Assembly (NCBI GenBank): GCA_913052265.1
Contig: CAJXDK010000002.1
Location: 33,241 to 97,240 of the forward strand
Reading direction: 5' to 3'
Origin: an uncultured Gammaproteobacteria bacterium
GTDB taxonomy: Bacteria > Pseudomonadota > Gammaproteobacteria > Pseudomonadales > Azotimanducaceae
Length of the DNA stretch: 64,000 nucleotides
The stretch's first letter is position 1; each line of letters opens with the position of its first letter. The translations under genes and the position numbers were made by a program. Positions 22,739-28,617 of this stretch are shown in pieces. The notes beneath the pieces were generated by a model that worked only from the letters and a program-made list of their open reading frames with translations, made no database searches and was not told the origin of the DNA.

Positions 22739-23911
22739 ATGTCCATGGAATTCGCTCTTGGTCAGGCCGCTGCGCGTCCTAATGCCCCGATGAGCTTGGC
22801 CCAGCCCATTGGCTTGGAGGCTTTGCCCACACCTGCACTGGTGTTAGAGCGTGGGGCTATGGAGCGCAATATGCGCAAAATGGCCGATCATCTTCAGCGT
22901 TCAGACAAAGGTTTTCGTCCCCACAGCAAGACGCATAAGTGCCCTACGATTGCCGCCTTACAAATGGATATGGGCGCTGCCGGTGTATGTGCAGCGAAAA
23001 TCAGTGAAGCGGCGATTATGTTGGCCGCAGGAATTCCATCTGTGCTGATCACGTCGCCGATTGCCACTTTCGCAAAGGCGCGAGCGCTGAATGCTCTGCT
23101 CGCACAATACCCCGAGCATCAACTGCTTATGGTGATCGACTCCGATCAGGGATTGGCGGCACTGCAAAACGCTTTGGATGCAGAGAGTCGGCTGGGGCTG
23201 CTGGTTGACATAGACCTCAAAATGGGCAGAACCGGAACCCGGGAGGTCGAGACCATGCTGCGCCTGATTGACGCCATAGCAACTGATGATCGATTCGACT
23301 TTCGTGGTATTCAGCACTATGCCGGTCATCTGATGCACATAGAGGACTATGCAAAGCGGCGCGACAAGTCTCTTGCTTCTTGGGCACGACTAGATGAATT
23401 TTTCGCGGCCTTGGAGGAGCGTGGTATCCCTTGCGATATTGTCACCGGCGGAGGCACAGGCACCTACGATGTCGATGTTGCGGTGGAGCGGCTAACCGAT
23501 GTGCAGGTGGGCAGCTATATTTTTATGGATGAAGAGTATCGGGCTTTAGCGAGCGCGCGAGATAGCCGTTTCGAAGATTTTGAGCTCGCTCTGACCGTTG
23601 CCTGCAGTACCATTAGTCAGCCTCAATCAAAAACAATCACCGTAGACGGAGGCTACAAGGCATTTGCCTCCGACTCGGTAAATCCTGTTTGTGATGATTT
23701 GCCAGGCGTTGAGTATCGTTTTGCTGGTGACGAGCATGGCGTACTGCTGCTGGCTGACGGGCAACAAGAAGTGCAGCTCGGTCAGGTTTTAAGGTTCGCG
23801 GCACCGCACTGTGACCCGACCGTTAATTTGCACGACTACTATTGGGTGTTAGAAGAGGATGGTTTGGTGCACAGCGTGTGGCCGATCAGCGCGCGAGGGT
23901 GCAGTTGGTAG
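22739..23911 (+). CDS. DSD1-family PLP enzyme (D-serine dehydratase / D-threonine aldolase-like, alanine racemase fold)
   Basis: LPTPALV, RPHSKTHK PLP lysine, GGGTGTY, QVGSY.FMD, GDEHG, HCDPTVNLHD. Confidence 0.85.
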   Translation: MSMEFALGQAAARPNAPMSLAQPIGLEALPTPALVLERGAMERNMRKMADHLQRSDKGFRPHSKTHKCPTIAALQMDMGAAGVCAAKISEAAIMLAAGIPSVLITSPIATFAKARALNALLAQYPEHQLLMVIDSDQGLAALQNALDAESRLGLLVDIDLKMGRTGTREVETMLRLIDAIATDDRFDFRGIQHYAGHLMHIEDYAKRRDKSLASWARLDEFFAALEERGIPCDIVTGGGTGTYDVDVAVERLTDVQVGSYIFMDEEYRALASARDSRFEDFELALTVACSTISQPQSKTITVDGGYKAFASDSVNPVCDDLPGVEYRFAGDEHGVLLLADGQQEVQLGQVLRFAAPHCDPTVNLHDYYWVLEEDGLVHSVWPISARGCSW

Positions 23912-23939
23912 CCATCCTCATAAGGTGCCGAGGGTTGTC

Positions 23940-24539
23940 GTGATTGATCTCATAGTAGCGGGCGGATGGTTAATGCTGCCGATTCTAAGCTGTAGTGTTG
24001 TTGCTGCTGCAATTTGTTTAGAGCGTTACTGGTCGTTGCGAGAGGAGCTGGTTATGCCGCCCGAACTGCTGGCGTTGACGTTGCCGCAGTTGCAGCAGCT
24101 GCTGGAGGATTCGGCTTCTCGGGAACAGCTGCTACAGCACTCTCCGCTGGGTGCCGTGTTGGCAGTTTTAGGGCAGGCGGATGCAGCAGAAATGGAAGGC
24201 GCTCGAGAGGCGGCGCTGACCAGTGTTGCCCATGATCTTGAAACGTATCTCACGGCTTTGGGGATAATCGCTTTGATCAGTCCGCTATTGGGCATTTTGG
24301 GTACCGTTGTAGGTATGATCGACGTCTTCACCTCTGTGGTGTCAGCGTCCGGCGAGACCGCAGCGCTCGCCGGCGGCATTTCTACCGCTCTGGTGACTAC
24401 GGCCGCTGGTCTATCAATTGCGATCCCAACGTTGGTTGCTCATCGATTGTTGTTGCGCAAAGTAGACTCGTTGTTGGTGATGCTGGATGAGGCGAGTCAG
24501 CGCTGGCGGGTGCGGCTGTGCGCGGAGCTCCAGGGCTGA
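23940..24539 (+). CDS. exbB: MotA/TolQ/ExbB proton channel protein
   Basis: GGWLMLPI, SPLLGILGTVVGMI, GGISTALVTTAAGL. GTG 23940 follows a GAGGG RBS. Confidence 0.85.
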   Translation: MIDLIVAGGWLMLPILSCSVVAAAICLERYWSLREELVMPPELLALTLPQLQQLLEDSASREQLLQHSPLGAVLAVLGQADAAEMEGAREAALTSVAHDLETYLTALGIIALISPLLGILGTVVGMIDVFTSVVSASGETAALAGGISTALVTTAAGLSIAIPTLVAHRLLLRKVDSLLVMLDEASQRWRVRLCAELQG

Positions 24540-24961
24540 TGGCTATGGTGAGGAGGCGCCGTCGTCATGAATCAGCGTTAGAGCTAACGCCCTTGCTCGA
24601 TGTGATTTTTTTGCTGTTAATTTTTTTTATGGTGTCGACTTCGTTCGTTGTAAACCGGGAAATCCCTATCCAACTTCCGCAGTCGAGTAGCGCCAGTATA
24701 GATGCCAGCAATGACCGATTAATCATGGCGATAGATGCTGCTGGGAATTTCTCGCTTGATGGCGAGAAAGTGAGTGACGTAGAAATAGCTGAGCTCGCTG
24801 AAGCCCTCAAGCGCAAACTAGACCAAGCCGCAGCCGAAAAAGCTTCGATTCGGTTAGACGTCGATGAGGCCACGGATTATCGATTCGTAATCAAAGCAAT
24901 GGATATCTGCCGTCAGGTAGGTATCAGCGACGTGCGCTTGAATACTCTTAGCAAAGATTGA
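24539..24961 (+). CDS. exbD: ExbD/TolR biopolymer transport protein
   Basis: LTPLLDVIFLLLIFFMVSTSF with the conserved Asp. TGATG overlap with exbB. Confidence 0.88.
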   Translation: MAMVRRRRRHESALELTPLLDVIFLLLIFFMVSTSFVVNREIPIQLPQSSSASIDASNDRLIMAIDAAGNFSLDGEKVSDVEIAELAEALKRKLDQAAAEKASIRLDVDEATDYRFVIKAMDICRQVGISDVRLNTLSKD

Positions 24962-24971
24962 ATAAGTAGTA

Positions 24972-27833
24972 ATGGCCAATTCTTCCGATTGGGATACATA
25001 CAAGCGTTTGCTGAGTTATTTGGCACCTTATTGGTTTTTGTTTGCGATTTCCGTGGTTGGATTTTTGTTGGCGGCTGGCGCAGAGGGATATTTTGTTCGG
25101 TTGTTCGGCAATTTAATTGATGAATGGGACAATGAAGCAGCCAGAGCCGCCGCTACGATCCCATTAATGATGGCGGCGGCGGCAGGGCTGCGCGCGGTAG
25201 GTACCGTGATTGGAGAAAGCGTAATGGCTAAGGTCTCCTTCAATATGGTGTTCAACCTACGGCAGCAACTCTTCGACCAGTTAATGCGTTTACCGAATAA
25301 CTATTTCGACGCGAATGCACAGGGCCATATCGTTTCGCGCATTACTTTTACCGTCACTCAACTTCGCGACACAAGCACTGACGCAATTCGTGCGGTGGTT
25401 CAAGATGGCCTCAAAGTTATTGTGATCGTTGGCTTTATGTTGGCGCTGAATTGGCGCTTAACTCTTATCTTTATTGCCTCAGCGCCGCTTTTGGCGCTGG
25501 TTGTGGTGTTTGCCAGTGGCCGATTTCGCCGTATTGCCAAGCGCATTCAAAATTCAATGGGTGACGTCACCCATGTCGTCTCCGAGGCCGTAAACGGCTT
25601 TAAGGTCGTCAAGACCTTTGGCGGTGAGCGTTACGAACAGGGCCGCTTCGATCGGGCGAGTAAAGTTAATCGTCAGCAGAATTTAAAGATGGCGATGACG
25701 CGCGTTTTCAGCTCTCAGTTGAATGAAACGATTATAGCTGTGGCATTGTGCTCGTTGATTTTGCTGCTCTATAGACCAGATGTGGGCGGTTCGTTGAGCG
25801 GTGGCGAAGCCGTGATGTTCCTGAGTTGGGCGGGCATGCTAGGCCGGCCGATTCGAAAACTTTCGGAAATTAACGCAAAGCTGCAGCGCGGTATTGCGGC
25901 AGCTGAGGATGTCTTTGCACAACTTGATGCGGGGGTGGAGTGCGACAGCGGATCGCAGACGATTGCCCGAGCTGACGGCAGGTTGCATATCGAAAACGTA
26001 AGCTTCCGCTATCAAGACGACGGCCCCGATGTATTGCGAGAGATTAATTTAGACATTGCGGCGGGGCAGAAGGTGGCACTCGTCGGACGTTCGGGCAGTG
26101 GCAAGTCTACCTTGGCCAGTTTGTTGCCTCGCTTCTACGACGTGCATAGAGGTTCTATAAGTCTTGACGGCTGCAATATAAACGATCTGCAGCTCGCCTG
26201 TTTGCGACAGCAGATTGCTTTGGTTACCCAGCAAGTAACGCTTTTTAACGACACGCTTCGCAACAATATCGCTTATGGGGATTTGGCCGGTGTGGATGAG
26301 GCCGATCTTTTGCTGGCCATCCAACGCGCCCATGCGGATGAATTTATAGCGGCTTTGCCTCAAGGGTTAGACACCATGGTTGGTGACGATGGCGTATTGC
26401 TGTCGGGAGGGCAGCGCCAAAGAATCGCCATTGCCAGAGCCTTGTTGAAAGATGCGCCGGTGCTGATTATGGATGAAGCCACCTCTGCACTCGATAATGA
26501 ATCAGAGAAGCATATACAAGCCGCGTTGGTAGAGGTGATGCAGGGCCGCACGACATTGGTGATCGCCCACCGACTCTCAACGATCGAGTCGGCGGATAGG
26601 ATTGTGGTGCTTGAACGTGGCCGAATCGTGGAAGAGGGTACGCATCAGCAGCTGCTCGATTCGGGCGCGCAGTACGCGAGTCTTCACGCTGCCCAATTTC
26701 AAGAAACGCCAGAAGAAAATCAGGCATTAGACCCTGAGATAGAAACGGCAGCGCCAGCATCTAGATCTCAGGGGATGCCGTTTATGGGCGATTACGCAAC
26801 ACGTTCCGCGTCCGTCTTAACCGCTGCCTGGTACAGCGGCGCGCGCTGGCCCCTAGTGCTGCTGCCTTTGTCCTGGCTGTATGGTGTTGTCGCCGATCGC
26901 GTCAAGAGGTCGCAACAGCGGCGCGCTGCATCTACTGGCCGTGCTGCAGCACCCGTCATTGTTGTAGGCAACATAACCGCAGGAGGCACCGGCAAAACAC
27001 CGATGGTTATCTGGCTTGTTGAGCAGTTAAAGCAACGAGGCTTTATCCCTGGGGTCGCTATGCGCGGGTACAGGGGTAAAGCGAGTCGGACAGGTTCGTT
27101 GGTGCCTGTCGATGGTGGCGCGGCGACCTATGGTGATGAGGCGGTACTGATGCGCCGCCGGCTCCTATGTCCGGTAGCGGTGGCTGCAGATCGACCTAAG
27201 GCGGTGGCGATGCTCATCCAAGATGGCTGCGATGTGGTTGTGAGTGATGACGGTTTGCAGCATTACGCTATGGAGCGAGATATTGAAATTGCGGTCGTAG
27301 ACGGCGCTCGTGGTCTCGGTAATGGTCGTCTATTACCTGCTGGTCCATTAAGAGAGTCTCGGTTACGGCTCGACAGCGTTGATTGGGTTGTCAGTAATGG
27401 ATGCGCAAGTAGTCTGCGAGATAATGAAATCGTAATGCAAGCTCGAGCTCTCGACTTCGTCAATCTAAGCAACAATACGCGGCTTTCGATCGACGAGTTT
27501 GTGCGTGAGCATAGATTAGTGCACGCACTTTGTGGCATTGGTAATCCAAATCGGTTCTTAGAGACGTTACAAGCGCTCGGAGTGTCTGCGGACTTACACG
27601 AATACGCCGATCATCACGACTACTCCGGCTCAGAAGTAATGTTTTCAGACGGTCTGCCAGTGGTTTGTACAGAAAAAGATGCAGTGAAATTGCGCGAACT
27701 TGACCAAGACTTAAGCCATGTGTGGGCATTGCGGATTGAAATAAGTTTCACCAAGGACATCGGTATGACGCTGGACGCGCTGTTGTCCGACAAAGGGATT
27801 GCGCCACGAAAGTTAAGGGCCGAGGAGCGCTAG
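24972..27833 (+). CDS. msbA-lpxK: Fusion of lipid A flippase MsbA (aa ~1-577) and tetraacyldisaccharide 4'-kinase LpxK (aa ~614-953)
   Basis: MsbA: TMD, GRSGSGKST, LSGGQRQR, MDEATSALD. LpxK: AAWY, VIVVGNITAGGTGKTP, SDDGLQHY, LLPAGPLRE, TEKDAVK. No in-frame stop between them. Confidence 0.9.
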   Translation: MANSSDWDTYKRLLSYLAPYWFLFAISVVGFLLAAGAEGYFVRLFGNLIDEWDNEAARAAATIPLMMAAAAGLRAVGTVIGESVMAKVSFNMVFNLRQQLFDQLMRLPNNYFDANAQGHIVSRITFTVTQLRDTSTDAIRAVVQDGLKVIVIVGFMLALNWRLTLIFIASAPLLALVVVFASGRFRRIAKRIQNSMGDVTHVVSEAVNGFKVVKTFGGERYEQGRFDRASKVNRQQNLKMAMTRVFSSQLNETIIAVALCSLILLLYRPDVGGSLSGGEAVMFLSWAGMLGRPIRKLSEINAKLQRGIAAAEDVFAQLDAGVECDSGSQTIARADGRLHIENVSFRYQDDGPDVLREINLDIAAGQKVALVGRSGSGKSTLASLLPRFYDVHRGSISLDGCNINDLQLACLRQQIALVTQQVTLFNDTLRNNIAYGDLAGVDEADLLLAIQRAHADEFIAALPQGLDTMVGDDGVLLSGGQRQRIAIARALLKDAPVLIMDEATSALDNESEKHIQAALVEVMQGRTTLVIAHRLSTIESADRIVVLERGRIVEEGTHQQLLDSGAQYASLHAAQFQETPEENQALDPEIETAAPASRSQGMPFMGDYATRSASVLTAAWYSGARWPLVLLPLSWLYGVVADRVKRSQQRRAASTGRAAAPVIVVGNITAGGTGKTPMVIWLVEQLKQRGFIPGVAMRGYRGKASRTGSLVPVDGGAATYGDEAVLMRRRLLCPVAVAADRPKAVAMLIQDGCDVVVSDDGLQHYAMERDIEIAVVDGARGLGNGRLLPAGPLRESRLRLDSVDWVVSNGCASSLRDNEIVMQARALDFVNLSNNTRLSIDEFVREHRLVHALCGIGNPNRFLETLQALGVSADLHEYADHHDYSGSEVMFSDGLPVVCTEKDAVKLRELDQDLSHVWALRIEISFTKDIGMTLDALLSDKGIAPRKLRAEER

Positions 27834-27837
27834 TCGT

Positions 27838-28617
27838 ATGTTGGTTCACGTTGTAATTCCGGCGCGATATGCCTCCACCCGATTGCCAGGAAAGCCTTTG
27901 GCGGATATCGCTGGGCGGCCAATGGTTGTGCGCGTCGCAGAGAGAGCGACCGCGTCAATCGCCGATGATGTCATGGTGGCTGTGGATGACCTGAAGGTTG
28001 CGCACGCGGTGCAGGCTGCCGGGTTTGAGGCGGTCAGCACCGACGAGGCGCATTCGTCGGGCTCGGATAGGAGCATGGAAGTTGCCCGCATAAAAGAATG
28101 GGCAGATGAAGATATTGTCGTGAATGTTCAAGGAGACGAGCCGTTGATTCCCGTTGCCATTATCGATCGTTTGATCGATAGCATGCGCAGCGCCCGCGAT
28201 CTGCAGATGGCAACCGTTGCTGAGCCTCTCGAAACGTTAGCCGACTTTTTGGATCCAAATGTGGTTAAGGTGGTAACGGATGATCGGGCCTGTGCGATGT
28301 ATTTTTCCAGAGCGAGCATTCCCTATCCTCGCGACGCGCAGAAAAATATGACCGAGCGGGCGTGGCTTGAATTTTCGCAGGATAAAAAAATACGGCGTCA
28401 TGTCGGTATTTACGCTTTCCGAGTCAGCGGCCTACGCCGATTTGTTGAACTGGGTCCGAGCTCATTGGAGCAAGTGGAAATGTTGGAGCAGTTGCGCTGG
28501 CTGCAGGCAGGATACGAGTTGCTGGTTGTGGACGCGGATGAACGCGTTCCTGGCGGCGTTGATACGCCAGCCGACCTAGAGCGTGTAAGAGCGCTCTGGT
28601 CGGAGGCTGGAGGTTAG
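27838..28617 (+). CDS. kdsB: 3-deoxy-manno-octulosonate cytidylyltransferase
   Basis: VIPARYASTRLPGKPLADI, VNVQGDEP, YFSRA.IP, RHVGIYA, LEQLRWL, GVDTP.DL. Confidence 0.95.
   Translation: MLVHVVIPARYASTRLPGKPLADIAGRPMVVRVAERATASIADDVMVAVDDLKVAHAVQAAGFEAVSTDEAHSSGSDRSMEVARIKEWADEDIVVNVQGDEPLIPVAIIDRLIDSMRSARDLQMATVAEPLETLADFLDPNVVKVVTDDRACAMYFSRASIPYPRDAQKNMTERAWLEFSQDKKIRRHVGIYAFRVSGLRRFVELGPSSLEQVEMLEQLRWLQAGYELLVVDADERVPGGVDTPADLERVRALWSEAGG

Follow-up and report, generated by a model that had tools for sequence, protein, structure and literature searches.

Can MsbA, the flippase of lipid A, and LpxK, its 4'-kinase, be parts of one and the same polypeptide? The question is raised by a single open reading frame (ORF) in a 64,000-nucleotide stretch of DNA (the window) from an uncultured marine gammaproteobacterium. 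MsbA is a homodimer and LpxK is a monotopic kinase of the cytoplasmic leaflet; both proteins are essential and both are antibiotic targets. The ORF listing of the window contains one uninterrupted frame on the + strand, from 24972 to 27833, that comprises 953 codons and a stop without any internal stop. Its product is probably a bifunctional inner-membrane MsbA-LpxK polypeptide that was born of the loss of the msbA stop codon and whose modules are joined by a passive flexible tether. The bifunctional reading is taken because both modules are complete, are the sole copies in the genome, and are kept as one frame. The gene and its parts are arranged as follows.

24972..27833, + strand: msbA::lpxK fusion gene, one frame that passes both equivalog models and recurs as the same frame in relatives
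24972..26702, + strand: MsbA module (residues 1-577), recognized by TIGR02203 and by a match to structure 9bd6, with 43% identity to E. coli MsbA
26703..26801, + strand: linker (residues 578-610), a disordered and unconserved tether with a predicted local distance difference test (pLDDT) score below 50
26784..26786, + strand: candidate internal start ATG (Met605), in frame, with AGGGG at 26770-26774
26802..27830, + strand: LpxK module (residues 611-953), recognized by PF02606 and TIGR00682 and by its alignment with Aquifex aeolicus LpxK

The preliminary description of this locus had claimed a genuine in-frame fusion with both modules intact, which is borne out by the single ORF and by the two equivalog models that it passes. 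The same frame is found throughout the window's GTDB family (OM182/HTCC2089, Ca. Azotimanducaceae), from which 121 genomes were sampled. LpxK is present in 107 of them and lies inside an open frame of 939-1050 amino acids in approximately 92, while several shorter LpxK frames end at contig ends yet continue the MsbA frame. Separate msbA and lpxK genes were found in nine of the 107 genomes (genera g190 and g193 and two of the four g4 genomes); the remaining approximately 98 are fused or are cut by a contig end within the fused frame. Relatives with separate genes throughout, a finding that the preliminary description had thought capable of overturning its proposal, are thus not what the family contains. 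Among loci from named genome records, 74 of 80 are fused, closed chromosomes included, and these 80 loci cover Ca. Azotimanducaceae, Ca. Azophilus, OM182, and the K189A clade. In clusters close to the window's protein, identical fused proteins of 952, 961, and 963 residues come from many independent assemblies.

These data also decide on the possibility that an indel in a metagenome-assembled genome (MAG) merged two separate genes. The window does stem from a 74-contig draft genome, and both other frames carry stops within the linker (TAG at 26728 and TGA at 26735), as had been pointed out before. With stops in the other two frames, however, a +/-1 indel would truncate the protein and not create a fusion. 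The same continuous frame is present in approximately 98 family genomes and in closed chromosomes, many independent assemblies yielded the same proteins for relatives at 80-99% identity, and linker lengths among relatives differ by whole codons only. Because the frame is shared by relatives and identical proteins arise from independent assemblies, an assembly error is excluded for practical purposes. Such an artefact retains almost no probability, and the fusion is taken as genuine.

The fusion, initially put forward as the strongest candidate for a new system, is neither rare nor new: it is fixed in most of the family. A search of public proteins, limited to lengths able to hold both modules and clustered at 90% identity, returned at least 504 fused protein clusters. 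Among the best 120 of these at least 504 clusters, almost all proteins have 930-1000 amino acids and carry PF00664, PF00005, and PF02606, and the fused clusters, where named, are annotated only as "MsbA". In a class sample of 400 genomes, 11 genomes, which belong to nine further families, carry a true fusion, as verified on the DNA. The fusion is thereby found in approximately 3% of the sampled gammaproteobacterial genomes and in at least ten families. Candidates that did not withstand inspection include a 968-amino-acid frame of another family (G138), in which the LpxK frame merely stays open across an msbA gene that lies in a different frame. Full-length matches in Oceanospirillum sanctuarii, an Oceanospirillum MAG, Oleiphilus, and one further MAG are two same-frame genes with a stop between them. 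In the literature searched, a natural MsbA-LpxK fusion is not described and only operon mentions were found, in agreement with the preliminary description, which knew of no characterised example. Of the objection that such fusions might already be common and described, the first half applies, but no description was found in the literature searched. The architecture, which combines two well-known and already linked proteins, is widespread yet undescribed in that literature.

What do the two modules do? The MsbA module consists of a six-helix membrane domain (approximately residues 25-318) and a nucleotide-binding domain (approximately residues 330-577), to which Pfam assigns ABC_membrane (PF00664, residues 25-291) and ABC_tran (PF00005, residues 355-505), respectively. 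With the NCBIfam equivalog model TIGR02203, residues 9-578 reach 686 bits (cut-off 602), and the closest solved structure is 9bd6 ("ATP-dependent lipid A-core flippase"; E 3e-172, residues 7-578). In an alignment of 117 fusions the ATPase residues K378 (Walker A), S478 (signature), E502 (Walker B), and H533 are invariant or nearly so, and they align with K382, S482, E506, and H537 of E. coli MsbA. In the published structures of MsbA with lipopolysaccharide, the lipid A phosphates are presumably bound by the basic residues R78, R148, and K299 of E. coli MsbA. The fusion has R74 and R295 at the positions of R78 and K299, and R148 is replaced by Q144 (25401-25403), which is nearly invariant within the window's family in the same alignment. 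The other ATP-binding cassette exporters of the window genome have at most 34% identity to the module. As the sole close MsbA of the genome, encoded within a lipid A/3-deoxy-D-manno-octulosonic acid (Kdo) operon, the module is predicted to be the lipid A flippase.

The LpxK module is matched by PF02606 with 314 bits (cut-off 27) over residues 628-937, which covers profile positions 3-326 of 328, and by the NCBIfam equivalog TIGR00682 with 246 bits (cut-off 92) for residues 633-924. Its motifs, namely the P-loop GGTGKTP (671-677), D722/E723 of the GDE motif, DDGLQH (759-764), and DH (880-881), are invariant or nearly so in the 117 fusions. The P-loop and the acidic and histidine residues presumably have the catalytic roles known from the published structures of Aquifex aeolicus LpxK. 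The motifs, including D759/D760, Q763/H764, and D880/H881, align with the Aquifex aeolicus entries 4EHW/4EHX at E 8e-22. The module begins with two membrane-interface helices (residues 608-621 and 626-654 in an AlphaFold2 model), and the motif W620/Y621/W626/P632 in this region is common to the fusion, to E. coli LpxK (W13, P18), and to unfused relatives. The hydropathy of the LpxK helix is slightly lower in fused (0.02) than in separate genes (0.32; p=0.005), a difference that supports no conclusion because the samples are phylogenetically non-independent. The fusion is the only LpxK-like sequence in the window genome, which is 96% complete, and the module is predicted to be the tetraacyldisaccharide 4'-kinase. 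Because the C-terminus of MsbA is cytoplasmic, the LpxK helix of the fusion would have to insert into the membrane from the cytoplasm.

The two modules are connected by residues 578-610 (26703-26801). The linker had been placed at approximately 26700-26810 and called acidic; the position holds, while the acidic character is a trait of the window's genus only and does not extend across the family, where the net charge runs from -6 to +10. Among the 117 fusions the linker is 20-45 amino acids long (median 29), with Pro, Ser, Glu, and Lys as its enriched residues. The domains have a mean pairwise identity of 0.54-0.67, the linker one of 0.14. In an AlphaFold2 monomer model built from the 117 fusions the pLDDT averages 82 and exceeds 90 in most of the LpxK core and of the MsbA nucleotide-binding domain, whereas residues 578-610 fall below 50 and lack secondary structure. 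The spacer between the MsbA motif AQFQ and the LpxK tryptophan never falls below 29 codons in 87 fusions (median 37), compared to 13 of 24 separate gene pairs in which it does. This minimum fits a tether that has to span the distance between the nucleotide-binding domain and the membrane, a test that is weakened by the shared ancestry of most fusions. Within the linker an AGGGG stands 9 nt before the in-frame ATG at 26784 (Met605), a weak Shine-Dalgarno-like match seen in the window's genus only. The motif PFMGDY around Met605 is likewise conserved within the genus only.

How might such a protein work in the cell? The proposed polypeptide is an MsbA half-transporter followed by a disordered tether of approximately 33 residues and an LpxK domain with its own membrane-interface helix. 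Dimerization via MsbA would place two LpxK domains on each flippase at the cytoplasmic face of the membrane, and the homodimer with two kinases and four ATP sites that was proposed earlier follows logically from the architecture. The LpxK part would phosphorylate tetraacyl-disaccharide-1-phosphate to lipid IVA, separate WaaA and LpxL/M enzymes would finish Kdo2-lipid A, and the MsbA part would then flip the product. The checks for these intermediate enzymes that had been suggested were positive: the window genome harbors one waaA, two acyltransferase genes of the lpxL/M family, and lpxB, which indicates that the usual late lipid A steps are present in the organism. The export of a minimal lipid A, which had been offered as one possible role, is contradicted by waaA, by the two lpxL/M-family genes, and by a kdsB gene directly downstream of the fusion. 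The linker itself would serve as a passive leash that fixes a 1:1 ratio and holds the modules together. In E. coli msbA and lpxK are co-transcribed, and a kinetic model describes LpxK as the flux-controlling step under regulation; the LpxK substrate is toxic and a feedback signal in E. coli models (PMC4412817). It can be speculated that a fixed 1:1 ratio could matter given this flux control and the toxic substrate.

The proposed origin of the fusion is an operon with neighboring msbA and lpxK genes that shared one frame, in which the stop codon of msbA was lost. Such a starting point exists in nature. A junction query of 230 residues spanning the MsbA/LpxK boundary was searched in the order and class samples, and it found same-frame msbA and lpxK genes split by exactly one stop in eight genomes of six other families (order sample) and in 14 genomes (class sample). 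The single-stop arrangement was confirmed at loci of Oceanospirillum (e.g. Oceanospirillum sanctuarii), Oleiphilus, and others. Some unfused MsbA proteins bear a tail of 22-29 residues that reaches the lpxK start. One base change, or read-through of the stop, would turn the single-stop state into a fusion. The same-frame loci with a single stop are L092, L101, L087, L099, L114, L119-L122, and L141-L149, and TGA is the most frequent stop among them.

The history of the fusion was read from a maximum-likelihood tree of the concatenated modules, with the linker excluded. The fused and unfused genes of the window's family form one clade, in which the unfused g190, g193, and two g4 genomes are nested, and the fusions of other families do not fall into one clade with those of the window's family. 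The family tree requires four state changes, at least three of which are forced by well-supported branches; with other families added there are at least eight fusion or fission changes, at least five of which are forced. In family f143 and in genus g4, fused members have unfused sisters. Fusion and fission are, on the gene trees, recurrent across Gammaproteobacteria. In the window's family an early fusion followed by approximately three fissions is the more parsimonious reading, so that an early ancestor of the family would already have carried the fusion, which would later have reverted a few times. The unfused g4 genomes G443 and G497 (L107, L108) are sisters of the fused G330 and G473. Their stem branch is long (0.47-0.88 changes per column), and they have the longest msbA-lpxK spacer, of approximately 61 codon equivalents, which suggests rapid change after a recent split.

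Why has the frame been kept open? Because lpxK lacks its own start once it is fused, translation of the essential LpxK depends on read-through from msbA, and this dependence could be the main force that maintains the frame even without any benefit from tethering. The passive tether is favored because the linker is unconserved, disordered, and variable in length and because separate genes were regained repeatedly; linker and reversions together argue for a passive tether over a specialized machine. An adaptive synthesis-export assembly was weighed against it. The tether would then put LpxK at the cytoplasmic-leaflet entrance of MsbA, so that the flux-controlling phosphorylation and the flipping would be coupled through channelling, a checkpoint, or co-regulation, and the fusion would have been selected for this coupling. 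At least ten gammaproteobacterial families have gained or retained the fusion, and it is fixed in at least 37 of the 40 genera of the window's family. In addition, fused spacers have the 29-codon floor that separate pairs often undercut, as if the tether must reach the membrane, and the flux control by LpxK and the toxic, signaling substrate of the E. coli models (PMC4412817) would give coupling a target. However, WaaA, LpxL, and LpxM act between both steps and are encoded by separate genes in the window genome, neither the sequence nor the charge nor the length of the linker is conserved, and the fused state reverts readily even inside one genus. The low predicted template modelling (pTM) score of the structure model gives no sign of a fixed interface, and the dependence of LpxK on upstream translation explains the upkeep of the frame equally well. 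An assembly selected for coupling is considered unlikely, though not negligible. A broader "Rosetta stone" version, in which MsbA and LpxK form a physical unit in Gram-negatives generally, with the flux-controlling kinase at the cytoplasmic-leaflet entrance of the flippase and the link made covalent in the window's family, appears doubtful; the minimum of approximately 29 residues would then be the distance from the nucleotide-binding domain to the membrane.

It is also conceivable that the frame is real and that the proteins are mostly separate, with LpxK freed by internal initiation at ATG 26784 or by proteolysis of the linker. The in-frame ATG 9 nt after AGGGG, the conservation of PFMGDY within the genus, and the accessibility of a disordered linker to proteases speak for it. 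On the other hand, AGGGG is a weak match, no linker start preceded by a Shine-Dalgarno sequence is conserved across the family in the 85 fused loci scanned, and a linker identity of 0.14 gives no pointer to a conserved cleavage site. Predominantly separate proteins are accordingly judged improbable. Several points nevertheless weigh against a bifunctional chain with a purely passive tether. In the window's genus some free LpxK is possible from ATG 26784 as a minor start. The spacer floor hints at a geometric constraint, in which case the tether is perhaps not wholly neutral. The pTM of the AlphaFold2 monomer is 0.56 and thus uninformative on the relative placement of the domains. The direction of change rests on gene-tree parsimony with some weak backbone branches, and a second msbA or lpxK copy may lie on the DNA missing from the 96%-complete genome.

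The proposed bifunctional MsbA-LpxK chain is encoded downstream of an exbB-like and an exbD-like gene and upstream of kdsB. The neighboring genes are the following.

23859..24539, + strand: exbB-like gene (MotA/TolQ/ExbB proton channel; PF01618, E 1.6e-25), first in the apparent operon
24518..24961, + strand: exbD-like gene (PF02472, E 3.9e-29), with its stop 10 nt upstream of the fusion ATG
27838..28617, + strand: kdsB (CMP-Kdo synthetase; PF02348, E 2e-50), which begins 4 nt past the fusion stop

The genes exbB, exbD, msbA::lpxK, and kdsB are read as one apparent operon because the gaps on the two sides of the fusion are only 10 nt and 4 nt and because no terminator-like site was found on the + strand between 24300 and 29150. 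A promoter and terminator scan of the locus gave no signal that exceeded shuffled expectation. The exbB-like ORF, when started from ATG 23859, overlaps a preceding ORF of 390 amino acids (22739-23911) by 53 nt (23859-23911), and the true start of the exbB-like gene is probably further downstream.

The closest described system is the msbA-lpxK operon of E. coli K-12 (b0914-b0915). It shares with the fusion locus both functions, the gene order, co-transcribed neighbors, and a nearby kdsB (PMC4412817). The identity between the two systems is 43% for the MsbA module and 47% for the LpxK module. The two differ in that msbA and lpxK of E. coli are separate genes in different frames with a 4-bp overlap, whereas the fusion is one frame with a 33-residue linker; in addition, R148 of E. 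coli MsbA stands opposite Q144. The solved MsbA structures (9bd6/9bd7 and E. coli 5TV4 and 6BPL) have the same domain order as the MsbA module, but their chains end where the linker of the fusion begins and none carries an LpxK domain. Aquifex aeolicus LpxK (4EHW, 4EHX) resembles the LpxK module in its P-loop, its GDE, DDGxQH, and DH motifs, and its N-terminal helix before the kinase core. Its N-terminus is free, while that of the LpxK module is tied to a cytoplasmic domain.

A separate observation concerns ten genomes of the same family, which belong to the genera g166 (G409, G445, G475, G499), g171 (G414, G448, G478, G501), and g192 (G435, G467), with three closed genomes among the g166 members. 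In these ten genomes six-frame searches gave no match to LpxK, LpxB, or WaaA, and the positive controls scored. LpxC was found in G435 only. The best MsbA-like proteins have 33-37% identity, and LptD is kept in all ten (130-306 bits). These three genera may be free-living Gammaproteobacteria that have naturally lost lipid A synthesis while retaining the Lpt translocon.

The fusion reveals no new pathway or mechanism but joins neighbors that are already known in one pathway. Its natural single chain is a ready-made construct for asking whether MsbA and LpxK interact, and by inference the N-terminal helix of LpxK can function with its N-terminus held in the cytoplasm. Co-translated in-frame neighbors fuse and split easily, and in many lineages one stop codon separates the two states. 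The tethering may be adaptive or only a ratchet. The fusion also points to a gap in annotation: hundreds of "MsbA" entries conceal the sole LpxK of the cell, and pathway reconstructions would wrongly score LpxK as missing.

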